A stretch of 64,000 bases of DNA, from positions 199,150-263,149 of the forward strand of contig JACPKL010000005.1 of the NCBI GenBank assembly GCA_016187035.1. Direction: 5' to 3'. The notes below the pieces were generated by a model. It did no database searches. It had not been told where the DNA came from and was given only the letters and a program-made list of their open reading frames with translations. Each line of letters starts with the position of its first letter. The stretch's first letter is position 1. Origin of the DNA: Candidatus Daviesbacteria bacterium (GTDB lineage Bacteria > Patescibacteriota > Microgenomatia > Daviesbacterales > UBA10151). Below, piece by piece: positions 9,968 through 56,366 of the stretch. The position numbers and the translations under genes were made by a program.

Positions 9968-10981
9968 ATGCGTGTAGGAATGGATATTTCACAACTTGCA
10001 CATAAGGGAGGAGTAGTTACTTATACATTGAATTTAGCACAGCAGCTTTCTAGAGTTGAAGATTTAGATATGGTTTACTTTTTTTCTTCCCTAAGAAAAA
10101 AAGCCCCTCTTAATATTGATGGGAATATCAAAAAATTTTATCTACCTTCTACGCTTTTTGAAATGCTTTTTAATAAATGGAGAAATATACCAATTGAGAG
10201 ATTTATTGGAAAAGTGGATATATTTCATTCTTCTGATTGGATTCAACCTCCGTCTAGGGCTAAAAAAGTCACTACTTATCATGATGTTATTCCTCTAAAA
10301 TACCCGCAATGGTCCCACCCAAAAATTGTTGAAGTTCATAAGCGAAGGTTGAAATTAGTTGAGGATGAAATTGACATGGTGATTGCTGTTTCAGAAACCA
10401 CAAAAAAAGACTTGCTTGAAGTTTCCAGGATACCTGAGAAAAAAATTACTGTTATTTATGAAGGATCTACAATATCTAATAGCGTTAGAATCCAGAGTGA
10501 GGCTGAACTACGAAGATTTAGGGAGAAGTATAAGCTACCGGAAAGGTATATCCTAGCTATAGGAGGAGTAGGGGAAAGAAAAAACTTAAAAAGGGTGAAA
10601 GATGCTTGCCGCGGCTATAATTTGGTGATTGCAGGTGTTACACTCCCTTGGTTGAATATAGAAGAATTAAAGCTGCTTTATGCTTCTGCTGAGGTTTTGC
10701 TTTATCCGTCACTTTATGAAGGATTTGGTTTGCCGATATTGGATGCTCAAGCTTATGGATGTCCTGTTGTTACTTCTAATGTTTCCGCTATGCCTGAGGT
10801 AGCTGGAAAAGGCGCTATATTGGTAAACCCTTATTCAATTGAGGATATAATTAGAGGGATTAGGCAAGTTAAGGAAATTAGGGAAGAGGTTATACAAAAG
10901 GGTTTTGAGAATGTAAAAAGATTTTCCTGGGAAAAGTGTGCAAAAGAAACTGTAGAGGTGTACGGGAGGCTGATGAGATGA
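9968..10981 (+). CDS. GT4-family glycosyltransferase
   Basis: YEGFGLPILDAQAYGCPVVTSNVSAMPEVAG and [10 protein letters not shown]. Its C-terminal third is a close paralog of 50588..51754. Confidence 0.85.
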   Translation: MRVGMDISQLAHKGGVVTYTLNLAQQLSRVEDLDMVYFFSSLRKKAPLNIDGNIKKFYLPSTLFEMLFNKWRNIPIERFIGKVDIFHSSDWIQPPSRAKKVTTYHDVIPLKYPQWSHPKIVEVHKRRLKLVEDEIDMVIAVSETTKKDLLEVSRIPEKKITVIYEGSTISNSVRIQSEAELRRFREKYKLPERYILAIGGVGERKNLKRVKDACRGYNLVIAGVTLPWLNIEELKLLYASAEVLLYPSLYEGFGLPILDAQAYGCPVVTSNVSAMPEVAGKGAILVNPYSIEDIIRGIRQVKEIREEVIQKGFENVKRFSWEKCAKETVEVYGRLMR

Positions 10982-12108
10982 ATATCTGGATAGATGGGTA
11001 TGAAGCAAATGAATCCCAAAGACTTGGGTCCTCACAGGTAGCTTTTGAGCTGATAAAACATTTTGAAAAAATAGATAAGCAAAATACATATACAGTTTTG
11101 TTGCCGGGTAAACCTTTATATGATTTGCCTAAAGAAAGGAATGGATGGAGATATAAAGTTCTAAAACCTAAAAGACTTTGGACTAAGGTTGCTTTACCTT
11201 TGTCGTTGTATACTGCGAAACTGAAACCTCAAGTATTTTTTTCACCAACACATTATATTCCAAGCTTTTCACCCTCATCAGTTAAAAGAATAGTAACTAT
11301 ATTTGACTTATCTTTCCTGTATTTTCCAAAGATGTTTAATAAAAAAGATCTTTGGCAACTGATTAGTTGGACTAAATACTCCGCTTTGAATGCAGATCAT
11401 ATTATTACGATTTCTAATTTTTCTAAAAAAGATATTTGTGAGCAATACAAAGTTGATAAAAGTAGGGTTACAGTAGCTTATCCTGGATATGATAGAGATA
11501 AGTTCAAGGTTCAAGGTTCAAAGTTCAAAGTTGATGAAACTAAAAATAAATATAATTTAGGAGATAACTATAACTACATTATATATATAGGGACCATACA
11601 GCCTAGGAAAAATCTAATCAGATTAATTGAGGCAGTTTCACGGATAGATAATTTAGCTTTGGTAATTGTTGGTAAAACTTCAGGTGAAGGCAGAGGGGGT
11701 TGGATGTATGAAGAGACTTTATCAGCACCACAAGAATACGCAGTAGCAGATAGAGTTAAATTTTTGGGCTTTGTACCTACAGAAGATTTACTTTATTTAC
11801 TCTCTGGCGCTAAAGCGTATATTTTACCGTCACTTTGGGAGGGTTTTGGCATTCCGGTTTTAGAAGCGATGGCTTGTGGAGTGCCAGTAATAGTATCCAA
11901 TGTATCATCATTACCTGAAGTAGTTGGCAAAGCAGGACTTTTGATTGACCCTTATTCTGTTTCGCAGATAGAACAGGCAATTAGGACTGTTGTCACTGAT
12001 AAAAAATTGCAAAGTAAATATTCAAAAGCAGCTTTAGAACAAGTAAAGAAGTTTTCCTGGGAAAAAACAGCCAAGGCTGTTTTAAAAGTATTTGAAAACT
12101 TTGCTTAG
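10978..12108 (+). CDS. GT4-family glycosyltransferase
   Basis: WEGFGIPVLEAMACGVPVIVSNVSSLPEVVG and KFSWEKTAKA. The ATG at 10978 has GGGAGG 11 nt upstream and overlaps the upstream stop (ATGA). The track start at 10936 was rejected. Confidence 0.85.
   Translation: MNIWIDGYEANESQRLGSSQVAFELIKHFEKIDKQNTYTVLLPGKPLYDLPKERNGWRYKVLKPKRLWTKVALPLSLYTAKLKPQVFFSPTHYIPSFSPSSVKRIVTIFDLSFLYFPKMFNKKDLWQLISWTKYSALNADHIITISNFSKKDICEQYKVDKSRVTVAYPGYDRDKFKVQGSKFKVDETKNKYNLGDNYNYIIYIGTIQPRKNLIRLIEAVSRIDNLALVIVGKTSGEGRGGWMYEETLSAPQEYAVADRVKFLGFVPTEDLLYLLSGAKAYILPSLWEGFGIPVLEAMACGVPVIVSNVSSLPEVVGKAGLLIDPYSVSQIEQAIRTVVTDKKLQSKYSKAALEQVKKFSWEKTAKAVLKVFENFA
11504..11538 (+). repeat. Heptanucleotide tandem array TCAAGGT x2, TCAAAGT x2, TGATGAA inside a GT4 gene
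   Basis: Read directly. Encodes KFKVQGSKFKVDE. Confidence 0.9.
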
Positions 12109-12109
12109 T

Positions 12110-12146
12110 TTGGACTATTAGGACAACATATCCAAGGACCGTCCCC
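12110..12146 (+). repeat. Family-A repeat copy A1 (core AAGGACCGTCCCC at 12134-12146; left part diverged)
   Basis: Shares the invariant 11-mer AGGACCGTCCC. Intergenic, 45 nt upstream of the acetyltransferase ATG. Confidence 0.7.
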
Positions 12147-12191
12147 AATGTGTTTGCTTATGGAAGACTATATCCAATATAATTAGTTGAT

Positions 12192-22227: not shown

Positions 22228-22247
22228 CGGATAAAGAAGAGGCAAAA

Positions 22248-22300
22248 ATAAATTATGCTATATTTAGGTTGTTGTATCAATATTTCTTAGGACCGTCCCT
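22248..22300 (+). repeat. Family-A repeat copy A2 (..TATTTAGGTTGTTGTATCAATATTTCTTAGGACCGTCCCT)
   Basis: Aligns over about 50 nt with copies A4-A6. Intergenic between the DUF4012-like gene and recO. Confidence 0.8.
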
Positions 22301-22367
22301 AATGAAACATTAGTCAGTAACAGGAGAGTGCATAATCAGTTACTAGAAATAATTAAATCCATTCTAC

Positions 22368-22425
22368 CTAAAGGTGTGAAGCTAGTAGTAGTACACCCTT
22401 AGGGTGTGCAATGCAAGTGCAAACT
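22368..22425 (+). repeat. Family-B hairpin repeat B1 (orphan copy)
   Basis: AAAGGTGTGAAGCTAGTAGTAGTACACCCTTAGGGTGTGCAATGCAAGTGC. Stem ACACCC/GGGTGT with loop TTA. No transposase nearby. Confidence 0.8.
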
Positions 22426-22469
22426 TTTTTAAAGTTGCAGAGGGCTTTAAGATAAGATAAACTCCCCTC

Positions 22470-29454: not shown

Positions 29455-29466
29455 GGTTTGTCGTTT

Positions 29467-29518
29467 GGGGACGGTCCTAGAATTTACAGTTATAACAATC
29501 TAAATAAGTCAAACTTTT
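29467..29518 (-). repeat. Family-A repeat copy A3 (inverted; overlaps the RAYT stop codon)
   Basis: The minus strand reads TTATTTAGATTGTTATAACTGTAAATTCTAGGACCGTCCCC. Confidence 0.8.
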
Positions 29519-30159
29519 CTTCTTCTCAAATATTTTCTTTTAGAAAGGGTATTAAATTTATTTGATCCAATAGTCGCTTCTTCCTTTTCAAATAATTCGT
29601 CTATTTCAGCAAAATCTTTAGAAATTCCATCATAAATAAATTTTTCATATTCCTTTCTTGAATTATGTGAATCCCCAATCAGTCTTACAATATCTCTATC
29701 TAGTATTTTGAAAGCCTCCATTCCTATTGCTTCCTTAAAACTACTGTATAAATAATCCCTTGGATCTGAAACTAGTCCTGCTTTCACTGGATTTAAATAG
29801 ATATATTGAGATAGTTTTAGAAAGTATGAATCATTCTCAATTAATATGCTTTTAAATCTATTTTGGAAAACTGGCCCAAAGTGTTGAAAAGTTTTATTAA
29901 AATACATTGAATAACTAGTTGTCAGCGAAGACATTATTTTGGATATTGGAATTTTCCTGGTTTGAATAGAGATATGAAAGTGATTAGGCATTAAACAGAA
30001 AGCATAGATAGAATGATCGTATTTATCTTTTAATTGTAGAAGCTTTCTTAGAAAAAAGTTATAATCAGCTTCAGAGAGAAAAATTGGTTGTTTATTAATC
30101 CCTCTGTTAAATACATGATAAAAAGCGTTTTGGAAAGTAAATCTTGGGCCTCTAGGCAT
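29509..30159 (-). CDS. REP-associated tyrosine transposase-like protein (RAYT / IS200-like Y1 HUH transposase)
   Basis: FYHVFNRG, an HUH triad in CLMPNHFHISI, and the catalytic-Tyr helix QYIYLNPVKAGL (PF01797-type). The track start at 30204 (TTG) was trimmed to the ATG at 30159 (MPRGPRF...). Confidence 0.85.
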   Translation of the reverse strand: MPRGPRFTFQNAFYHVFNRGINKQPIFLSEADYNFFLRKLLQLKDKYDHSIYAFCLMPNHFHISIQTRKIPISKIMSSLTTSYSMYFNKTFQHFGPVFQNRFKSILIENDSYFLKLSQYIYLNPVKAGLVSDPRDYLYSSFKEAIGMEAFKILDRDIVRLIGDSHNSRKEYEKFIYDGISKDFAEIDELFEKEEATIGSNKFNTLSKRKYLRRRKV

Positions 30160-30215
30160 TAATAAAACTATGTCATTTCTAGGTTGTTCTGTCAAGCTTA
30201 TCAAGGACCGTCCCC
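30153..30215 (+). repeat. Family-A repeat copy A4; left member of the 63-bp direct repeat framing murE
   Basis: TAGGCATTAATAAAACTATGTCATTTCTAGGTTGTTCTGTCAAGCTTATCAAGGACCGTCCCC. By manual alignment, 61/63 identical to 31372-31434. Confidence 0.9.
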
Positions 30216-31381
30216 TTCTTCAGAAGTTAAAAAACATTTTTTATCATTTGCCGCAGGCTTTTATAGCTAATATTTTATATGGGTTTCCGTCAAATGGTAT
30301 GACGATTGTTGGAGTAACTGGGACTGATGGAAAAACAACTACTACTAATTTGATTTATAAAATCCTTAAAGATTCAGGCAAAAAGGTCTCAATGATTTCT
30401 ACTATTAATGCTGTGATAGGGGGGAAAACCTATGACACCGGTTTTCATGTAACTAGTCCAGATCCTTTTACGTTGCAAAAATTTATTAGAAATGCAAAAA
30501 ATTCAGGGGATAATTACTTAGCTTTGGAAGTCACCTCACATGCTTTAGACCAATACAGATTCTGGGGGATTAATTTTACAGTTGGGGTAATCACCAATAT
30601 AACTCATGAACATTTAGATTACCATCAGACTTTTGAAAATTATTTTAAGACTAAATTAAAGCTTATTAAATATGCTAAGTGGAGGGTTGTTAATGAAAAT
30701 CTGAAGGGAGATTGGGGTGATAGGGGAAGTAAGGGTAATGGGGTAGTCACATTTGGTAGCAGTGGCCCCAAGCTTAATTTAAAACTAATAGGTGATTATA
30801 ATCTTGAAAATGCTTATGCCTCTTTGGCTGTAGCTAAGGTTTTAGGAATTGATGCAGAAAGCGCCCAAAGATCTGTGGAAGGGTTTACAGGTATTCCTGG
30901 AAGAATGGAAGAAGTAAAAAACAATAGGGGTATTAAAATATTTGTTGATTTTGCTCATACTCCGAATGCCTTAAAGCAAGCTCTTAAAGCTTTACGTCCC
31001 AAGGCATACGGAAGATTGATTGTTGTTTTTGGGGCTGCTTCAGAAAGAGATATTTTGAAACGTCCCATTATGGGAGAAATTGCTGCAAAAGAAGCTGATA
31101 TGACTATACTGACTGATGAAGATCCAAGGCACGAAGATAGAAATAAAATCTTAAATGAAATTGCCGGAGGAGCTATGATGGCGGGAGCAAAAGATGGGAT
31201 AAATCTATTTAAGGAACCGGATAGAGCTAAAGCTATTAAGTTGGCTATAACTTTAGCCAAAAAAGGAGATATAATAGGAATTTTTGGAAAAGGTCACGAA
31301 AAATCAATTAATTATAGGGGAGTGGAAACTCCGTGGTCAGATTTTGAGGCAGTAAAGAAAGCTTTAACTAATAGGCATTAA
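30170..31381 (+). CDS. murE: UDP-N-acetylmuramoyl-L-alanyl-D-glutamate--(2,6-diaminopimelate or L-lysine) ligase MurE (short form)
   Basis: GVTGTDGKTTTT P-loop, HEHLDYHQTFENYF and VDFAHTPNALKQAL. EDPR sits at the DNPR position. The ATG at 30170 lies inside repeat A4; an alternative ATG at 30299 sits just before the P-loop. Confidence 0.85.
   Translation: MSFLGCSVKLIKDRPLLQKLKNIFYHLPQAFIANILYGFPSNGMTIVGVTGTDGKTTTTNLIYKILKDSGKKVSMISTINAVIGGKTYDTGFHVTSPDPFTLQKFIRNAKNSGDNYLALEVTSHALDQYRFWGINFTVGVITNITHEHLDYHQTFENYFKTKLKLIKYAKWRVVNENLKGDWGDRGSKGNGVVTFGSSGPKLNLKLIGDYNLENAYASLAVAKVLGIDAESAQRSVEGFTGIPGRMEEVKNNRGIKIFVDFAHTPNALKQALKALRPKAYGRLIVVFGAASERDILKRPIMGEIAAKEADMTILTDEDPRHEDRNKILNEIAGGAMMAGAKDGINLFKEPDRAKAIKLAITLAKKGDIIGIFGKGHEKSINYRGVETPWSDFEAVKKALTNRH
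30706..30743 (+). repeat. In-CDS G-tract module, canonical G4 motif (GGGagattGGGGtgataGGGGaagtaaGGGtaatGGGG)
   Basis: Five G3-4 runs starting at 30706, 30714, 30723, 30733 and 30740. Encodes KGDWGDRGSKGNG in murE. Confidence 0.85.
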
Positions 31382-31434
31382 TGAAACTATGTCATTTCTA
31401 GATTGTTCTGTCAAGCTTATCAAGGACCGTCCCC
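31372..31434 (+). repeat. Family-A repeat copy A5; right member of the 63-bp direct repeat framing murE
   Basis: TAGGCATTAATGAAACTATGTCATTTCTAGATTGTTCTGTCAAGCTTATCAAGGACCGTCCCC. Contains the murE stop codon. Confidence 0.9.
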
Positions 31435-31475
31435 ATGGATTATGGATGGATCCATAGAACATGGAAAGGCTTTAG

Positions 31476-39902: not shown

Positions 39903-41057
39903 ATGTTGATTAAACCAGACATACAAAGATTTGCCAAGATTAAAGTAATTGGGTTAGGTGGCGGCGGTTCGAACTCGTTAAACTCAATGATTTCCTTACA
40001 ACAAATTCAAGGTGTTGAGTTTATTGCTGTAAATACTGATGCACAAGCATTAATGAATAACCAGTCCCCTACTAAGGTGCAAATTGGAGAAACTATCACG
40101 CGTGGATTAGGTTCTGGAGGAGATCCTGAGGTCGGGAGACAATCAGCAGAAGAGTCATCCCAGAAATTGGAGGATGTGTTACAGGATTCAGATATGGTGT
40201 TTCTAACAGCAGGTATGGGAGGAGGTACAGGTACAGGTTCTATCCCAATTGTTGCCCAGGTTGCTAAAAATGTTGGTGCATTGACTGTAGCAGTGGTAAC
40301 CAAGCCATTTGCATTTGAAGGCACTAGAAGGATGATGGTAGCAGAAGATGGATTGGAGAAACTTAGAGATAAGGTTGATGCATTAATAGTTATTCCTAAT
40401 CAAAGACTTTTAGAAACAGTTGAGAAAAATATGACTTTACAAGAAGCATTTAAATTAGCTGATTCAGTTTTAGGTCAAGGGGTTCAAGGTATTTCTGATT
40501 TAATCACTATGCCAGGACTTATCAATGTTGATTTTGCTGATGTTAAAACAATTATGTCTAGTGCTGGATCTGCCTTAATGGGAATTGGTGTGGCAGGAGG
40601 AGAAAACAGGGCTGCAGCTGCTGCTAGAATGGCTATAGCTTCACCGCTTTTGGAAGTTTCAATTGAGGGAGCTAAAGGGGTTCTGTTTAATATTGTAGGT
40701 GGGTCTGATTTATCTATGAATGAGGTTAATGAGGCAGCACAGATTATTGCTCAGGCTGCAGATCCTGATGCTAATATCATTTTTGGAGCAACTATTAAAG
40801 AAGATCAGCTGGATCAGATTAAAGTTTCAGTGATAGCAACAGGTTTTGATGAAACTAGAAGAAAATTAAGGGAGTATATTGGGACAGGCATTGGTTCTGC
40901 TCATATGCAGCAGGCACAAAACACTCATTGGTCTCAAGAGGTAGAAGAAGTTCCAACCAGACAAGCAGTTTCACAACAAGCAGATGAGGAAATAGAAAAA
41001 ACCCATGATGAAGATGAAGACCTTGAAATTCCAGCATTTTTAAGGTCGAATAGATGA
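39903..41057 (+). CDS. ftsZ: Cell-division GTPase FtsZ
   Basis: GLGGGGSN, GMGGGTGTGS (tubulin signature) and a C-terminal DLEIPAFLR peptide. Confidence 0.97.
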   Translation: MLIKPDIQRFAKIKVIGLGGGGSNSLNSMISLQQIQGVEFIAVNTDAQALMNNQSPTKVQIGETITRGLGSGGDPEVGRQSAEESSQKLEDVLQDSDMVFLTAGMGGGTGTGSIPIVAQVAKNVGALTVAVVTKPFAFEGTRRMMVAEDGLEKLRDKVDALIVIPNQRLLETVEKNMTLQEAFKLADSVLGQGVQGISDLITMPGLINVDFADVKTIMSSAGSALMGIGVAGGENRAAAAARMAIASPLLEVSIEGAKGVLFNIVGGSDLSMNEVNEAAQIIAQAADPDANIIFGATIKEDQLDQIKVSVIATGFDETRRKLREYIGTGIGSAHMQQAQNTHWSQEVEEVPTRQAVSQQADEEIEKTHDEDEDLEIPAFLRSNR

Positions 41058-41061
41058 TAAT

Positions 41062-41316
41062 ATGAAAAATAGGATTGAGTATGAGAGTGATAAAGACCAT
41101 TTAAAAAGATATGATAATGTTTTGGAAGGCATGCAAAGAGCGTATGAATTTTTTTATGACCTAGCAGAAGTATTTCCTAATAGACTAACTAAGGGTTTGG
41201 TTGAAAAAGCAATGGTTCTGTTAGAGCGGATATCTTACGAGAGTATCGGTAGGAGAAGGTTTTTTAGATTGACTGGATTTATCCGTGTACCACTGACTTG
41301 CAAAACCCACCCTTAG
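41062..41316 (+). CDS. Hypothetical small protein
   Basis: 84 aa, starting 4 nt after the ftsZ stop. No recognised motif. Its 3' end overlaps the family-B hairpin B2, so the C-terminus may be element-derived. Confidence 0.35.
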   Translation: MKNRIEYESDKDHLKRYDNVLEGMQRAYEFFYDLAEVFPNRLTKGLVEKAMVLLERISYESIGRRRFFRLTGFIRVPLTCKTHP

Positions 41317-41340
41317 GGTGTGTAATGTAATGTAAGTGTA
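41300..41340 (+). repeat. Family-B hairpin repeat B2
   Basis: CAAAACCCACCCTTAGGGTGTGTAATGTAATGTAAGTGTAAG. Lies 5-45 nt beyond the transposase stop. Confidence 0.8.
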
Positions 41341-41344
41341 AGAT

Positions 41345-42016
41345 TCACTCTAGGGCTAAATGTTTAATTTTATCTAATTCTCTCTGATAATCAACTTGAT
41401 CATTGGTGAACTGGATAAATTTATTTACAGATGGGAAATAACTGAGGATTACATTAGTATTTATAATGTCTGATGTTTGTTTACCTAAATAAGTAGAAAA
41501 GGAGGACCAGGGATAGGTTGTTAGTTGTTCAATGGTTTTCAGAATAAAAGCTGTGACAGGATTTAAGTGGATATAACGAGCTACATGAATTAACTGTTCA
41601 TCTGTTTCTATCCTGACTGCTTTGAACATAGTTTGAAATAAACTTCCACTGCGTTTTGTTTTTATATTAAAATATTTAGCATAACTGTTTTGGAAGTTAC
41701 TCATAAAAGTTGATATCCCTTTTTGTTTTATTTCTTTAATTAGGAAATGAATATGGTTAGGCATGAGGCAAAAAGTCATTATTTCAACTTGTTTTTCTCC
41801 TTTTCTTAAATTTGCCATGAATTCGGTTTTTTGCGCTTCAGGCATGCGTTTATAATGAGAAAAACGGATAGAAGGATTAAAATAACTATAGAAAGTTAGG
41901 ACATCTAAAGCCCTTTGGTAATCATAAGTTGAGAGAAAAATTGGTTGTTTTGCAATACTTCTATTAAATACATGGTAAATTTCACCCACAGCTAATGGGG
42001 TTTTTCTAATAGTCAC
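41345..42016 (-). CDS. RAYT / IS200-like Y1 HUH transposase (second paralog)
   Basis: IYHVFNRS, an HUH triad in CLMPNHIHFLI, and the Tyr helix ARYIHLNPVTAFI. 223 aa. Confidence 0.85.
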   Translation of the reverse strand: MTIRKTPLAVGEIYHVFNRSIAKQPIFLSTYDYQRALDVLTFYSYFNPSIRFSHYKRMPEAQKTEFMANLRKGEKQVEIMTFCLMPNHIHFLIKEIKQKGISTFMSNFQNSYAKYFNIKTKRSGSLFQTMFKAVRIETDEQLIHVARYIHLNPVTAFILKTIEQLTTYPWSSFSTYLGKQTSDIINTNVILSYFPSVNKFIQFTNDQVDYQRELDKIKHLALE

Positions 42017-42037
42017 TTATCCATGATAAAATAGTTA

Positions 42038-42085
42038 CCCAAAGGTGTCAAGCTAGTACACCCTTAGGGTGTAATGTAATGCTGC
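42038..42085 (+). repeat. Family-B hairpin repeat B3
   Basis: CCCAAAGGTGTCAAGCTAGTACACCCTTAGGGTGTAATGTAATGCTGC. Lies 22-70 nt upstream of the transposase start. Confidence 0.8.
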
Positions 42086-42121
42086 TGGTCAGTTTTGCCT
42101 CTTTCTGTTAATATTTACTTC

Positions 42122-44929
42122 ATGGTTAGATTTAAACCTGTTTTGTCGACAGTAGATTTTTTTGAAATTGAGGAGCAGTTAATTAAATACTGGGAAGACA
42201 ATAAAATATTTGAAAGGTCTATTAATGAACGGCCTGAGGATCGGAAATGGACATTTTTAGATGGTCCTCCTTTTGTGACTGGCACACCTCACTTCGGGTC
42301 ACTGCTTTCTTCTATTCCTAAAGATGTATTTGGCAGATACTTCACCATGAAAGGATATCGGGTCAGAAGGGTTTGGGGATGGGATGGCCATGGTTTGCCA
42401 ATTGAAAATAAAGTTGAGCAGGAGTTGAGGTTGAAGAGTAAAAAAGACATAGAAGAAAAGGTGGGGGTGGATAGGTTTATTAAAGAATGTTTAAAGTATG
42501 TTCAGGATGTGTCAGCTGATTGGGAGTGGTATATTAAGCACATTGGCAGGTGGGTAGATTTTAAAAACGCTTATAAAACCTGGGATTTGCCTTATATGGA
42601 ATCGGTAATGTGGGTTTTTAAGCAAATTTATGATAAGGGTTTGGTTTATAAAGGTTTAAGAGTTTCCCTTTACTGCCCTCATTGCGCTACCCCAATTTCC
42701 AATTTTGAGGTAGCCATGGATGCGGATAATTATAAAGATGTGACAGAAGCCTCGAATGTTTATAAATACCCTTTAAAGGATCAGCAAAACACTTTCCTTT
42801 TAGCATGGTCAACAACTCCCTGGAATAAAATTGTTACCCCTGCTTTGGCTGTTAATCCCAAATTGACTTATGTAAAAGTTAAACAAGGTGATGAAAATTA
42901 TATTCTGGCTAAAACTACTTTAAAAATGCTTAAAGAAGAGCCAAAAATAGAAGTTTTAGAAGAGTTTAAAGGAAGTGAGTTAATAGGCAAAAAATTTATC
43001 CCCCATTATGATTTTTACCCAATTAATCCAGGAAAATTGGCTTTTGTCGTGGTAGGAGGGGATTTTGTATCAGATGAGGAAGGGACAGGGATTGTGACTT
43101 TGGCTGCATATGGTGAAGAAGATTTGGAAATAATGAAAAAGGAAAACATTCAAATTGTCTTACACGTTGATGATGAGGGTATTATTTTGGACTCTGTGCC
43201 CAAATTTGGCGGAATGTATTACCTGAAGGCCAATGAACTGGTTAATAAAGACCTGGCTGACAGAGGGTTACTTTATGATGAAAAACAACTTTCACATTCT
43301 GTTGCCCATTGCTGGAGGTGCGCAACCCGTTTGTTTTATGCTCCCAAGGATGCTTGGTATATTGATGTACAGAAAATTAAACCGCAACTGTTTAAAAATA
43401 ATGAGCCAATAAACTTCTTCCCCAAACATTTTAAAATGGGGAGATTTAAAAAAAGCATGGAAGCTGCCCCTGATTGGAATATTTCCAGGAACAGATACTG
43501 GGGTTCACCTGTGCCTGTTTGGGAATGTGAATGCGGGGAAAGGTTTGTGCCGGGCGGAGTAAAAGAACTGGAAGAGAAGTCAGGACAGGAAGTGAGTAAT
43601 CTGCACAAACCATTTATTGATGAAGTTAAAATCACTTGTAAAAGTTGTGGCAAGAAAGTTGCGAGAGTTCCGGAGGTTCTGGATTCCTGGATAGAGGCCG
43701 GGTCAGCATCTTTTGCAGAACGCCACTTTCCTTTTGAAAAAGATTTAAAGCTGGAAGACTTTTTTCCTCCTGATTTTATTGCTGAATATACAGGACAAAT
43801 AAGAGCCTGGTTTTATGTGCTTCATGTCATTGGTACAGCGCTTTTCAACTCCCCTGCTTTTAAGAATGTTTTGGTGGAAGGGGTCATGCTTGGGACTGAC
43901 GGCAGGAAAATGAGCAAGAATTATGGAAATTTCCCTGACCCAAAAGAAATCATGACCCAATATGGCGGAGATGCTTTACGTCTTTATCTTTTGGGATCTC
44001 CGGTAATGAAAGGGGAAGATGTTAATTTCTCCAGTGACGGTGTACCGCAAGTTTCAAGAGGGTTTTTATTAATTCTTTGGAACTGTTATAAATATTTTGT
44101 AGATTATGCCAATACATTTGACTTCAGTTATACTTCTTCTGAGGATTTAACAATATTAGATAAATGGATTTTAGCCAGGTTAACCCAAGTAGTTTTAGAT
44201 ATAAAAAACTCTTATGAAAATTATGATACTTCAGCTGCTGTTAAACTTTTAAAGGAATTTATAGTAAATGATTTATCTACCTGGTATATCAGGAGATCAA
44301 GGGGCAGGAAAGAAGCTTTAAATATTCTTTATGATTGTCTAATAACTTTAACTAAACTTTTAGCTCCCCTGGCTCCGTTTATTTCTGAGGAAATATTTAA
44401 AAATTTAACAGGTGAGGAGTCAGTGCATTTACAGCAGTTTCCCAGAGGGGATCAAAAACTTTTGGATAATAGGGTGATAAGGGAAATGAGGCTAGTTAGG
44501 GAAATAGGGGAGAAAGCGCATGCTTTAAGAAAAGAAGCTAACATTAAACTTAGACAACCATTAGCTTCTCTTACTTATGCAATGGATCATCAATTGGATA
44601 AAGATTTAGAACAAATTTTAGCAGAAGAATTGAACGTTAAGAAGATTGAGTATAAACAGTCTTCAGAATCCGAGCCAAAAGTTGAACTGAATACAAATAT
44701 TACTCTTGAGCTTAAAGAAGAAGGTGAAGTTAGAGATTTAATCAGGCAAATCCAACAACTTAGGAAAAATCAAAACCTAACTTTAGCTGATAAAACTAAA
44801 ATTATCGCTCCTTCCTGGTCTAAAGATTTCGAAGAGCAGATTTTAAAAAGCACAACTTCGACTTCAATTGTTAAAGGAGGTCAATTGGAGATAGTAAAAG
44901 CAGAGAATGAAGTTAGTAAAGGTAGTTAA
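42122..44929 (+). CDS. ileS: Isoleucine--tRNA ligase
   Basis: PPFVTGTPHFGS (HIGH-type), GWDGHGLP, a CP1 editing insert, KMSKN (KMSKS) and Cys clusters (CPHCATP, CWRCATR, CECGERF..CKSCGKK). ATG at 42122 (MVRFKPV...) preferred to the track TTG at 42095. Confidence 0.93.
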   Translation: MVRFKPVLSTVDFFEIEEQLIKYWEDNKIFERSINERPEDRKWTFLDGPPFVTGTPHFGSLLSSIPKDVFGRYFTMKGYRVRRVWGWDGHGLPIENKVEQELRLKSKKDIEEKVGVDRFIKECLKYVQDVSADWEWYIKHIGRWVDFKNAYKTWDLPYMESVMWVFKQIYDKGLVYKGLRVSLYCPHCATPISNFEVAMDADNYKDVTEASNVYKYPLKDQQNTFLLAWSTTPWNKIVTPALAVNPKLTYVKVKQGDENYILAKTTLKMLKEEPKIEVLEEFKGSELIGKKFIPHYDFYPINPGKLAFVVVGGDFVSDEEGTGIVTLAAYGEEDLEIMKKENIQIVLHVDDEGIILDSVPKFGGMYYLKANELVNKDLADRGLLYDEKQLSHSVAHCWRCATRLFYAPKDAWYIDVQKIKPQLFKNNEPINFFPKHFKMGRFKKSMEAAPDWNISRNRYWGSPVPVWECECGERFVPGGVKELEEKSGQEVSNLHKPFIDEVKITCKSCGKKVARVPEVLDSWIEAGSASFAERHFPFEKDLKLEDFFPPDFIAEYTGQIRAWFYVLHVIGTALFNSPAFKNVLVEGVMLGTDGRKMSKNYGNFPDPKEIMTQYGGDALRLYLLGSPVMKGEDVNFSSDGVPQVSRGFLLILWNCYKYFVDYANTFDFSYTSSEDLTILDKWILARLTQVVLDIKNSYENYDTSAAVKLLKEFIVNDLSTWYIRRSRGRKEALNILYDCLITLTKLLAPLAPFISEEIFKNLTGEESVHLQQFPRGDQKLLDNRVIREMRLVREIGEKAHALRKEANIKLRQPLASLTYAMDHQLDKDLEQILAEELNVKKIEYKQSSESEPKVELNTNITLELKEEGEVRDLIRQIQQLRKNQNLTLADKTKIIAPSWSKDFEEQILKSTTSTSIVKGGQLEIVKAENEVSKGS
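44472..44510 (+). repeat. In-CDS 9-nt periodic G-tract module in ileS
   Basis: Units aatagggtg / ataagggaa / atgaggcta / gttagggaa / ataggggag. Encodes NRVIREMRLVREIGE. Confidence 0.75.
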
Positions 44930-50591: not shown

Positions 50592-51754
50592 AAAAAATAG
50601 CAGTTGATTTAAGACCTCTTGAGAGCCCAACAGGCAAAAGAGGCGTAGGTTATTTTAACAGGCATCTTTTTAAGGCATTACTAGAAAAGCCTCATCCTGA
50701 TTTTAAATTTAATCTTTTTACTTTCCCAAACAGCAGGCTGCAAAACGGGTTTAAGGTGGGGCCGGATGATAAGTTCCAATCAGTTCCCGCCCTATATTGG
50801 CCCAAGAAAGGACTTAGAAGGTTTGATCCGCTATTTTCATTAATTTGGTCCCGCACTATCAATACACTAAAACCCGATCTTTTACACATCCCTTTCCTCT
50901 TTGATGTTTATTATCTGGCAGTTTTGGATAATATCAGGGTGGTTGTGACCCTTTATGACACTATTCCGCTTACTTTTCCAAAAGAGTATTTCCAAAATGA
51001 GAAAGCAAAGCTTTGGTATATGGAAAGATTGACTCAGGCAAAAAAGGCAGCAAAGATTATCACTATTTCCAAGTCATCAAAAAAAGACATAGAAAGATTA
51101 TTAGAAATTCCGCCAGAAAAAATTAAAGTAATTTATGGGGGAATTGACCAGAAATTTAAAGTCATGGAAATACTGAAAATTAGGGAGACTCTGAGGAAAT
51201 ATAAAATCAAAACACCGTATATTTTAACAGTTAGTACCCACAGTTTTCATAAAAATATAGAAAGAATTTTTCAGGCTTTTAAGAAATATATGATAGAAGA
51301 AAAGAATGCACAGTTAATTTTAGTAGTAGTCTGCAGATTGATTTCTGGTGAAAAACGGGATTGGGTGAAACAATTAAAAGAGCTTGGGATAGAAAAAAGG
51401 GTAATACTTACAAACTTTGTTGAGGATGATGATTTACCTGCAATTTATAATGGGGCTAAATTATTTTTATTTCCTTCACTATATGAGGGATTGGGGTTAC
51501 CAATACTGGAAGCCCAGGCTTGTGGCTGTCCGGTGATTACTTCAAATATTTCATCCATGCCTGAGGTGGCTGGGAAAGGGGCAATCCTGGTAGATCCTTA
51601 CTCAACTAAAGATATTATCAGGGGGGTTAGGGAAGTTAGGGAAATTAGGGAAGAATTGATAAAAAAAGGATTTGAGAATGTAAAAAGATTTTCCTGGGAA
51701 AAATGTGCAAGGGAAACGCTGGAAGTATACAGAGAAATTCTACAAGGCCATTAA
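50588..51754 (+). CDS. GT4-family glycosyltransferase (paralog of 9968..10981)
   Basis: [41 protein letters not shown]...[10 protein letters not shown]. Shares an identical 32-nt run with the 10.9-kb paralog. Confidence 0.85.
51621..51650 (+). repeat. In-CDS G-tract module, canonical G4 motif (GGGGGGttaGGGaagttaGGGaaattaGGG)
   Basis: TTAGGG at 51627, 51636 and 51645, an exact 9-nt period. Encodes [10 protein letters not shown] in a GT4 gene. The paralog at 10857-10883 holds a decayed version. Confidence 0.85.
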
Positions 51755-53720: not shown

Positions 53721-53779
53721 CGTGGTAGAGCAATCCCTTCGTAAGGGAAAGATCGTGAGTTCAAATCCCACCGTTGGCT
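53718..53779 (+). pseudogene. 5'-truncated tRNA-Thr (anticodon CGT) fragment fused to the 3' end of tRNA-Gly
   Basis: A D arm (GCTC-GTGGTA-GAGC), an anticodon arm with loop TTCGTAA, a T arm (GTGAG-TTCAAAT-CCCAC, one A.C mismatch) and the 3' acceptor strand CGTTGGC are present. The complementary 5' acceptor strand (GCCAACG) and nt 8-9 are missing. Confidence 0.6.
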
Positions 53780-53785
53780 CACTTA

Positions 53786-53837
53786 AAAACTATGATTAAT
53801 TTAGGTTGTTGTACCAATCTATTTAAGGACCGTCCCC
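53786..53837 (+). repeat. Family-A repeat copy A6
   Basis: AAAAACTATGATTAATTTAGGTTGTTGTACCAATCTATTTAAGGACCGTCCCC, starting a few nt after the tRNA-Thr fragment. Confidence 0.85.
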
Positions 53838-53870
53838 AGATTAAGATTCGCAGATTCCGGCTCCCAGCTC

Positions 53871-56305: not shown

Positions 56306-56366
56306 GTCATTCCCGATCTAATCGGGAATCCATATTATATAGATTCCGTGTCAAGCACGGAATGAC
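56306..56366. other. Twin-hairpin palindromic element (ATTCCCGAT-cta-ATCGGGAAT and ATTCCGTG-tcaag-CACGGAAT, enclosed by GTCATTCC...GGAATGAC)
   Basis: Hairpin 1 at 56309-56329, hairpin 2 at 56343-56363. The outer 8-mers at 56306-13 and 56359-66 are mutually complementary. Intergenic, downstream of hicA. Confidence 0.75.

Follow-up and report, generated by a model that had tools for sequence, protein, structure and literature searches.

The 64-kb window analysed here (64,000 nucleotides of contig JACPKL010000005.1 from a Candidatus Daviesbacteria genome) carries two genes for Y1 transposase-like proteins, Y1-A and Y1-B. This report concerns Y1-B and the short palindromic repeats at its ends. 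Y1-B lies between ftsZ and ileS, both of which score above their NCBIfam cut-offs. An earlier note on this DNA had called the open reading frame (ORF) at 41345..42016(-) a paralogue of the first transposase and had read it, with its flanking hairpins, as an element with IS200/IS605-type ends. The paralogy held: Y1-B matches Pfam Y1_Tnp (E = 3.7e-11) and is 33% identical to Y1-A (29509..30204(-); E = 1e-26), the chief difference being an insertion of 30 residues. As to the kind of element, we think it probable that Y1-B and its repeats form a cassette of the REPtron/TIRtron type, that is, a vertically inherited class-2 Y1/HUH enzyme related to TnpA_REP/RayT and bracketed by two copies of a cognate palindromic repeat. 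The features are listed in Table 1.

Table 1. Features of the Y1-B locus and of the two repeat families, in window coordinates.
Feature	Position	Strand	Description
Y1-B gene	41345..42016	-	223 residues, GTG start; class-2 TnpA_Y1 (RAYT/TIRYT-like), putative HUH single-stranded DNA endonuclease
B3 palindrome ACACCC-TTA-GGGTGT (ACACCCTTAGGGTGT)	42058..42072	+	On the 5' flank of the gene, with 6 nt between it and the -35 box; orthologues have a palindrome at the same position
B3 tail AATGTAATGC	42073..42082	+	Short tandem repeat of ATTAC/GTAAT type, common to B2
P' ACCCAAAGGTGT	42037..42048	+	Weak second palindrome or partial hairpin copy overlapping the -35 box; includes AAAGGTGT; can pair with the right arm of B3
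Y1-B predicted promoter	42023..42051	-	-35 TTGACA (42051-42046), 17-nt spacer, -10 TATCAT (42028-42023)
B2 palindrome CACCC-TTA-GGGTG	41308..41320	+	3' side of the gene, between convergent genes
B2 tail TGTAATGTAATGTAAGTGTAAGAT	41321..41344	+	Spacer from hairpin to Y1-B stop; occupies the place of the inner inverted-repeat box GGTGTC-N9 of relatives
B1, gene-less whole module	22366..22424	-	Tail GCAATGCAAGTGCAAAC, palindrome 22393-22407, 6-nt insertion, AGCTTCACACC, P'; DUF4012-recO intergenic region; orientation as B2 and B3
Gene-less family-A copies	12092-12147, 22238-22302, 31372-31435, 53775-53838		All in one orientation

Judged by its conserved residues, Y1-B is predicted to be a catalytically intact Y1/HUH enzyme. 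The HUH histidines (H88-I-H90), the catalytic Y148 within YIHLNP, and N152 and P153 are invariant in alignments of both 19 and 53 sequences, and Y14, H15, N18 and R19 are invariant in the larger one as well, which settles in the positive whether the protein keeps its catalytic residues. Members of the family are 223-224 residues long in the alignments and share the motifs NH[IVF]H, LFQ, YIHLNP and WSS[FY], the last represented by a WSSF tail in Y1-B. An AlphaFold (AF2) model of Y1-B (predicted local distance difference test score 91, predicted template modelling score 0.86) has two extra helices where a conserved insertion of 30 residues (approximately 44-76) separates helix A from strand 2, and three short helices in the 70-residue tail. 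A Foldseek search with this model placed E. coli TnpA_REP first (4er8_A, E = 3e-8, template modelling score 0.68), followed by ISDra2 and IS608 at about 1e-5; the ISDra2, IS608 and IS200 transposases together spanned 1e-5 to 1e-3. Searching the PDB with a profile of the family likewise gave 4er8 TnpA_REP as the top match (E = 3.3e-4), with ISDra2 TnpA behind it. More than 2,000 homologues are present in the protein database. The best 120 of these are 58-83% identical to Y1-B and nearly all 223-225 residues long, and those among them with a named source come from Candidatus Daviesbacteria or Levybacteria. A protein look-up found no record of the exact 223-residue sequence.

Quentin et al. (2018; PMC6006769, Table 1) separate the IS200 transposases, of about 150 residues with a Y---Q motif, from class 2, which has Y---NP. 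Y1-B has the Y---NP signature and is closest in both sequence and fold to TnpA_REP; it is RAYT-like rather than IS200-like. When we compared its motifs with that table, a comparison of signatures and not a scoring by subclass hidden Markov models, Y1-B appeared closest to subclass 2.1 (NHVH or NH[YF]H, FQ, Y[IV]HLNP, SS tail, median length 238 residues). The same authors equate this subclass with group 1 of Bertels et al. (2017; PMC5581495) and with most TIRYTs of Di Nocera et al. (2013; PMC3733652).

The repeat associated with Y1-B is rare in the window. The 13-mer CACCCTTAGGGTG occurs at exactly three sites, 22394 (B1), 41308 (B2) and 42059 (B3), all in one orientation with the loop TTA on the + strand. 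Allowing up to two mismatches still returned only these three sites, each on both strands, which makes six matches against 0.60 expected; none of 100 shuffles reached six. B2 stands 24 nt past the Y1-B stop codon and B3 42 nt ahead of the start codon. The hairpins at both gene ends, their common + strand orientation and the (G)TAATGTAATG that follows both B2 and B3, all described in the earlier note, can be read directly from the DNA, and the direct-repeat alignment of the two flanks (CATTACATT..ACACCCTAAGGGTG) scored 41 against a shuffle maximum of 29. More distant orthologues do not keep this shared tail. As single-stranded DNA, B3 folds into the expected hairpin, of 7 bp, with a folding energy that is unexceptional when compared with shuffles (z = -1.1 to -2.1). 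Independent assemblies from this species, which we reached through a 214-residue call of the protein (P0001) and through RecO, are base-for-base identical at B1 in five samples and at B2 and B3 in three, so that these features are not assembly artefacts.

In the whole repeat unit, which is about 45-55 nt long, a strong palindrome rich in GC (P; here ACACCC-TTA-GGGTGT) and a weak, partial copy of it (P'; ACACC..GG) are separated by about 9 nt (NNTAGCTTG). The earlier note had correctly placed AAAGGTGT upstream of B1 (22370-22377) and B3 (42041-42048) and not of B2. We found that this segment is part of the repeat unit and, at B3, the -35 region (TTGACACC) of the predicted promoter of Y1-B itself: complementing AAAGGTGT gives ACACCTTT, with TTG immediately before it. 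Beyond B3 the minus strand reads ACTAGC-TTGACA-17 nt-TATCAT-GGATAA-GTG, and the TTGACA-17-TATCAT site matches the consensus at 11 of 12 positions and was the top promoter-like site in a scan of 41000-42300. It presumably serves as the promoter, and with the GTG start only 6 nt past the -10 box the Y1-B mRNA would probably be leaderless. The layout of hairpin, N6-8, TTGACAC, -10 box and start codon recurs in five orthologues (L001, L002, L004, L087 and L089; L-numbers denote related loci or contigs compared with the window), and ACACC-N2-4-GG after TTG is kept in gene-linked and gene-less modules alike. No -10 box was called at the right spacing from B1.

For AAAGGTGT the earlier note had proposed an alternative pairing with a hairpin arm, perhaps as an attenuator upstream of ileS. 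The pairing itself is seen in the minimum-energy fold of the minus strand, in which P' forms 12 bp with the right arm of B3. The attenuator did not stand. We considered an ileS leader, T-box or attenuator and rejected it: a search of 41000-42300 against Rfam returned nothing at E<=1, the scan of this region called no terminator-like site at B2 or B3, and no T run follows the + strand hairpin. At gathering thresholds, Rfam found nothing in the whole window apart from three tRNAs. A canonical intrinsic terminator at B2 was rejected as well, as the scan did not call it and its stem of 5-6 bp is followed by GGTTTTG; B2 could still act as a weak terminator or stabiliser. The TAG stop codon (41314-41316) of an 84-residue ORF after ftsZ (41062..41316(+)) falls within the B2 hairpin loop (..ACC CAC CCT TAG). 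This ORF has no Pfam match, and relatives have ORFs of other lengths (67, 181 and 257 residues) at its position.

The pairing of a Y1 gene with its own palindromes recurs across Patescibacteria. We compared 85 distinct loci from this group, with proteins 28-100% identical, and found that at 65 of them the 140 nt upstream and the 140 nt downstream of the Y1 gene have a segment of at least 10 nt in common; with flanks displaced by 2.5 kb, only 6 of 85 did. The shared segments are mostly palindromes with stems of 5-16 bp and a genome-specific sequence (for example ACACCC-TAA-GGGTGT, CACACC-N-GGTGTG, ACCACCT-GAA-AGGTGGT, AACGAT-CCCGT-ATCGTT and TTCAACCC-TAA-GGGTTGA). All orthologues examined have one palindrome ahead of the -35 box and one just past the stop codon (0-25 nt past it in most relatives), which match each other and differ between genomes. 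When loci in different genomic contexts were compared, the cassette boundaries coincided with the hairpins.

In six relatives (L002, L004, L008, L009, L010 and L087) the flanks are inverted repeats of 33-55 nt, with scores far above those of shuffles; in each, some 9 nt lie between the palindrome and a GACACnnnnGG box. Only in the window and in L001 is the best flank alignment direct (tail plus palindrome). This direct arrangement seems to have been derived locally, a microsatellite of ATTAC type having taken the place of the inner box in the right repeat. We considered whether the pentamer tail (GTAAT/GCAAT) could be conserved as a guide or cleavage site, and rejected this: the tail is present at B1, B2 and B3 and partly in the downstream flank of L001, and it is absent from L002, L004, L008, L087 and L089, which have the inverted GGTGTC box instead. 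We read it rather as a microsatellite specific to this lineage. The tails of B1 and B2 consist of the same short repeat, but wherever B2 has TTAC, B1 has TTGC (minus strand TTGCACTTGCATTGCA versus TTACACTTACATTACA). Independent microsatellite expansion is the simplest reading of the two tails, although it does not explain the coordinated TTAC/TTGC change.

Two further observations on the flanking palindromes were made in relatives. Immediately outside the hairpin, one or two further copies of its left arm are often found (upstream in L087 and L091, and in L117, L141 and L150), as in CTACCCACCC-AAA-CTACCCACCC-TTA-GGGTG, giving the look of an array of half-sites. Two distant relatives (L014 at about 10190 and L020 at about 1027) have a third copy of their cognate palindrome inside the Y1 coding region, which recalls the REP insertions within tnpA_REP reported for subclass 2.4 (PMC6006769).

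The first Y1 gene of the window has a cassette of its own. Y1-A is bracketed by repeats of the type GGGGACGGTCC in inverted orientation (cassette 29465-30215), and its layout is that of the Y1-B cassette, with the GGGGACGGTCC palindrome followed by AGCTTGACA, 17 nt, CATAGT, 7 nt and ATG; the true start of Y1-A is probably this ATG at 30159 (MPRGPRF). The repeat core is GGACCGTCC for Y1-A and CACCC-TTA-GGGTG for Y1-B. Since Y1-A, like Y1-B, is bracketed by its own repeat type, the proposal of the earlier note that each paralogue has a cognate repeat is supported, and across genomes protein and repeat change together, as in RAYT/REP systems. Family A is also dispersed: five of its six copies have one orientation, each gene-less copy overlaps the end of a + strand gene or tRNA or begins at most 11 nt past it, and the one at 31372-31434 matches the 5' module of Y1-A itself at 97% identity, ATG included. 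In the DUF4012-recO intergenic region (22228-22469), the family-A module at 22238-22302 and B1 (22366-22424) form a tandem pair with a common orientation and about 60 nt between them, and this arrangement is identical in five independent assemblies.

We next consider how long Y1-B has resided at this locus. The gene order ParB-L27-L21-FtsW-ileS, Y1, small ORF-ftsZ-ftsA is found in four Daviesbacteria lineages (L001, L002, L004 and L091) whose Y1 proteins are 65-77% identical to Y1-B; the orientation of Y1 is the same as in the window and the small ORF beside ftsZ is variable. The neighbouring FtsW proteins are 66-68% identical, a divergence similar to that of Y1-B. The conserved position and the FtsW-like divergence argue for vertical descent under purifying selection. 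The same cassette anatomy is found at other loci, between NUDIX and UbiA genes in a Levybacteria lineage (L087) and between recA and recX in L089, and since the proteins there are at a similar distance, this points to relocation over long times. We saw no near-identical Y1 copies; the two Y1 genes within 64 kb are 33% identical. A genome scan for protein relatives gave few above 50% identity among the matches listed, and the close relatives were gathered from contigs that encode homologues. Y1-B is hence a long-term resident and not a freshly inserted jumping gene.

The motif is not restricted to gene ends, a point that the earlier note had left to a count of further copies: B1 is a gene-less copy in the window, and many more are found in metagenomes. 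Scanning metagenomes with an 18-base pattern of the left module (GGGTGTNNTAGCTTGACACC) gave 62 stretches. At 61 of the sites the context could be determined; 7 adjoined a Y1 gene at its 5' end, 2 were right-end copies and about 50 had no adjoining Y1 gene. The module (palindrome plus NNTAGCTTGACACC) is therefore a dispersed repeat family. Gene-less modules are intergenic at 41 of 57 distinct sites, and where the neighbouring genes are co-directional the module opposes them by 11 to 3. Seven gene-less copies in otherwise unrelated flanks, from two groundwater metagenome assemblies (Hain-H43 and Hain-H51) and one other, share CACACCCC-W-GGGGTGTG with the flanks of one Y1 gene; their common unit of about 52 nt reads GGTGTGA-GCCTAT-CACACCCC-T-GGGGTGTG-TTAGCT-TGACACC. 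On contig L123, a Y1 gene (58% identity) bracketed by that palindrome lies 1.7 kb from one of the gene-less copies; the relation recurs in L109. In two related metagenomic genomes (L104, 26-865(-), and L117, 422-1516(+)) the module lies in frame within the interdomain linker of MurG, where it encodes ..KGVKLTHPKG... Five other MurG genes, including that of the window, lack it, which is direct evidence of an insertion event.

A -10 box at a distance of 16-18 nt was present in 5 of 7 gene-linked modules and in 8 of 49 gene-less ones, the latter being the background rate at control spacings. From these frequencies it follows that the -35 box belongs to the repeat and the -10 box does not; the gene has placed its own -10 box beside it. 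The idea that gene-less modules are mobile complete promoters was rejected, as a -10 box at the right spacing is no commoner than at control spacings. In both families, several of the gene-less modules lie directly against a tRNA gene at its 3' end, facing it (L108, L113, L122 and L152, and window position 53775).

Among known systems, the cassette is best filed beside the REPtron and TIRtron systems, whose signature motifs it has and whose inverted repeats are found in its relatives. With TnpA_REP it shares the class-2 Y---NP motif and the nearest profile and fold match (4er8). Like a REPtron, it has a single gene copy per type, vertical inheritance and bracketing cognate palindromes that are also dispersed, mostly between and sometimes within genes. 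With the TIRYTs and subclass 2.1 it shares NH[VIF]H, FQ, Y[IV]HLNP and an SS-containing tail as well as a similar length (223 residues, against about 225-240 for TIRYTs). As in a TIRtron, the name given to an inverted arrangement around the gene (PMC3733652), copy number is low, and the gene in relatives stands between long terminal inverted repeats (33-55 nt), which show partial self-complementarity and come from families of moderate abundance; in group 1, the flanking 16-mers number just about 12 per replicon (PMC5581495). There are also differences. The sequence GGGGWSAS, present in the inverted repeats of many TIRYTs though not all, is not matched exactly; repeat B has GGGTGTAC, relatives have GGGGTGTG or GGGGTGGA (7 of 8 positions) and family A has GGGGACGG (7 of 8). 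The core of the Y1-B repeat is a strong palindrome, whereas no REP-like hairpins were found for subclass 2.1 (PMC6006769), and unlike REPs it carries a consensus -35 box. The conserved 30-residue insertion is another departure from subclass 2.1, and the hosts, Patescibacteria, lie outside the coverage of the three surveys (PMC3733652, PMC6006769 and PMC5581495).

Several observations weigh against placing Y1-B in this company. On the NCBIfam equivalog for RayT (REP_Tyr_transpos, NF047646) it scores 56.5 bits, under the cut-off of 80, as does Y1-A with 75.7 bits, and at the guide-recognition position it has FQ in place of the WQ/WE of RayT. Subclass 2.1 proteins are reported to have a distal C-terminal domain resembling a helix-turn-helix (PMC6006769), whereas neither the whole Y1-B protein nor, at E<=10, its tail alone matched such a domain in Pfam (Bac_DnaA_C, HTH_23, HTH_28). 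The foot of the hairpin lacks the GT[AG]G tag of REPs; the flanks of B read ..ATTA/AGTA-CACCC..GGGTG-TACTAGC, and GTAG occurs only 3' of the palindrome in some relatives, as part of ..GTAGCTTGACA. The two flanks in this window are direct and not inverted and, set against the TIRYT arrangement, have only the palindrome itself in common. REP families typically have tens to hundreds of copies, and the Y1-B repeat apparently has far fewer, judging from the window, with three copies in 64 kb, and from local density in relatives, where there are mostly just the two flanking copies per locus of 10-20 kb. Some of the relatives' palindromes have a 1-nt centre, which would suit a dimeric binder of double-stranded DNA as well as a hairpin. 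The earlier note had proposed comparing occupied and empty sites; within the species no polymorphism was seen: B1, in five samples, and B2 and B3, in three, apparently from one series (consecutive SRR accessions), are occupied throughout, so there is no sign of current activity in the single population sampled.

These points have to be set against what other explanations would require. An autonomous insertion sequence of the IS200/IS605 family, whose left and right ends would be the same-strand subterminal hairpins and whose insertion between ftsZ and ileS would have followed the single-strand peel-and-paste mechanism, agrees with the Y1/HUH fold, which Y1-B shares with the TnpA proteins of IS608, ISDra2 and IS200, and with its intact catalytic residues. 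The window's hairpins form direct repeats on a single strand, followed by a common tail, and one lies upstream of the gene as in IS200; the cassette ends at hairpins in differing contexts, and the site varies by lineage (recA/recX in L089, for example). To this extent the reading of the earlier note stood. Nevertheless, we regard such an element as very unlikely, because the cassette departs from IS200/IS605 in the Y motif, length, copy behaviour and synteny. Y1-B has Y---NP, not Y---Q, and 223 residues with a tail instead of the short core-only IS200 enzyme of about 150; its best match is TnpA_REP, not IS608 or ISDra2; and it has no tnpB. IS200 elements are multi-copy, near-identical and horizontally spread, without conserved synteny and often with tnpB, and none of this applies here: the window's two copies share only 33% identity, and the position between ftsZ and ileS is kept at 65-77% identity, at a divergence like that of FtsW. 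Moreover, the ends are long inverted repeats in most close relatives, and copies of the end module are mostly gene-less.

The main rival to a REPtron/TIRtron-type cassette takes the palindromes for ordinary regulatory sites in double-stranded DNA, with the upstream one as an operator beside the -35 box for a dimeric regulator or for Y1-B as a repressor, the downstream one as a terminator or mRNA stabiliser, and no cleavage or mobility involved; on this view the gene-less copies would serve other genes as operators or terminators. The fixed spacing of 6-8 nt between palindrome and TTGACA in orthologues fits this, as do the downstream copy 0-25 nt past the stop codon followed by GG and T-rich sequence, the 1-nt centres, and the gene-less modules, which are largely intergenic (41 of 57) and in several cases abut tRNA or gene 3' ends. 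We nonetheless consider it unlikely. The flanked protein is a conserved HUH nuclease with an invariant tyrosine and no known regulator, no terminator-like site was called at B2, and the sharing of flanks is specific to Y1 genes (65 versus 6 of 85 loci). Gene-less modules have no -10 box above background and mostly oppose the neighbouring genes, and the in-frame copy in murG together with the identical cores in unrelated flanks indicates insertion events rather than locally evolved sites. Chance, that is, three unrelated occurrences of a 13-mer with no functional tie to the gene, could draw on the small number of copies in 64 kb and the ordinary folding energy, but we count it as refuted, as no shuffle reached the observed count and the arrangement recurs with differing palindromes at 65 of 85 relatives.

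If Y1-B and its repeats are indeed a REPtron/TIRtron-type cassette, a mechanism can be modelled on TnpA_REP bound to a REP hairpin (PDB 4er8) and on IS608 and ISDra2 TnpA. The palindrome would extrude as a hairpin when its DNA is transiently single-stranded, probably on the lagging-strand template. GC skew is positive across the whole window, which points to the + strand as this template. The enzyme would bind the hairpin and cut and rejoin the DNA nearby through Tyr148 and a metal held by the HUH motif, with the occasional copying or moving of modules and, over long times, of the whole cassette as possible outcomes. As the left repeat contains the -35 box of Y1-B, we would expect occupancy of the module by the protein to repress its own gene. 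Binding, cleavage, mobilisation and autoregulation by Y1-B are in this sense what we infer from its relatives and its repeats. The common orientation of the three B copies, and of all but one of the six A copies, is consistent with a single-strand mechanism tied to the replication fork, the copies being few.

RAYT with its REPs and TIRYT with its TIR repeats provide the textbook example of how a domesticated transposase can maintain populations of short repeats; nearly all studies of them concern Proteobacteria, Cyanobacteria and Bacteroidetes. In the literature that we searched, no paper links RAYT/REP-type systems to Patescibacteria; one 2026 preprint has a mere mention of a KEGG RayT match in an archaeon. 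The present cassette is best taken as a known kind of system, hitherto undescribed in this group, and the concept behind it is established. Its anatomy recurs in these ultra-small bacteria of the candidate phyla radiation (65 of 85 loci, more than 2,000 homologues), and that a nuclease and its repeats are retained in such extremely streamlined genomes argues for a benefit to the host. It is worth the attention of specialists for its breadth in the radiation, for a hairpin core in a subclass reported to have no hairpins, and for the built-in -35 box. With one gene, two flanking copies and few gene-less ones, it offers a simple test system in which to address whether enzymes of the subclass-2.1 type act on hairpins and whether a repeat that bears a -35 box couples expression of the enzyme to repeat occupancy. 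For annotation, the word transposase is here no evidence of recent insertion or horizontal transfer.

A broader idea, which we put forward tentatively and hold to be rather doubtful, is that Y1-B represents a large undescribed clade of class-2 Y1 enzymes in Patescibacteria, distinguished by the insertion, a tail without the helix-turn-helix domain and a repeat with a built-in -35 box (TTGACACC), and kept because the enzyme-repeat pair serves the host. If so, each new copy of the repeat would deposit half a promoter together with a protein-binding palindrome. The pair would then not be a parasite but could, for example, insulate or rewire transcription at gene 3' ends and tRNA genes or help to handle single-stranded DNA at the fork.

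Two other repeats in the window stand apart from these families. Between genes, upstream of a LysM gene and with no Y1 gene nearby, are two adjacent palindromes with related arms, ATTCCCGAT-CTA-ATCGGGAAT (56309-56331) and ATTCCGTG-TCAAG-CACGGAAT (56343-56363). A direct repeat of 287 nt with 77% identity (10677-10963 and 51444-51730) comprises the 3' parts of two ORFs 40 kb apart, which both end in ..FSWEK.., as does repeat family D4, and are probably paralogous genes.

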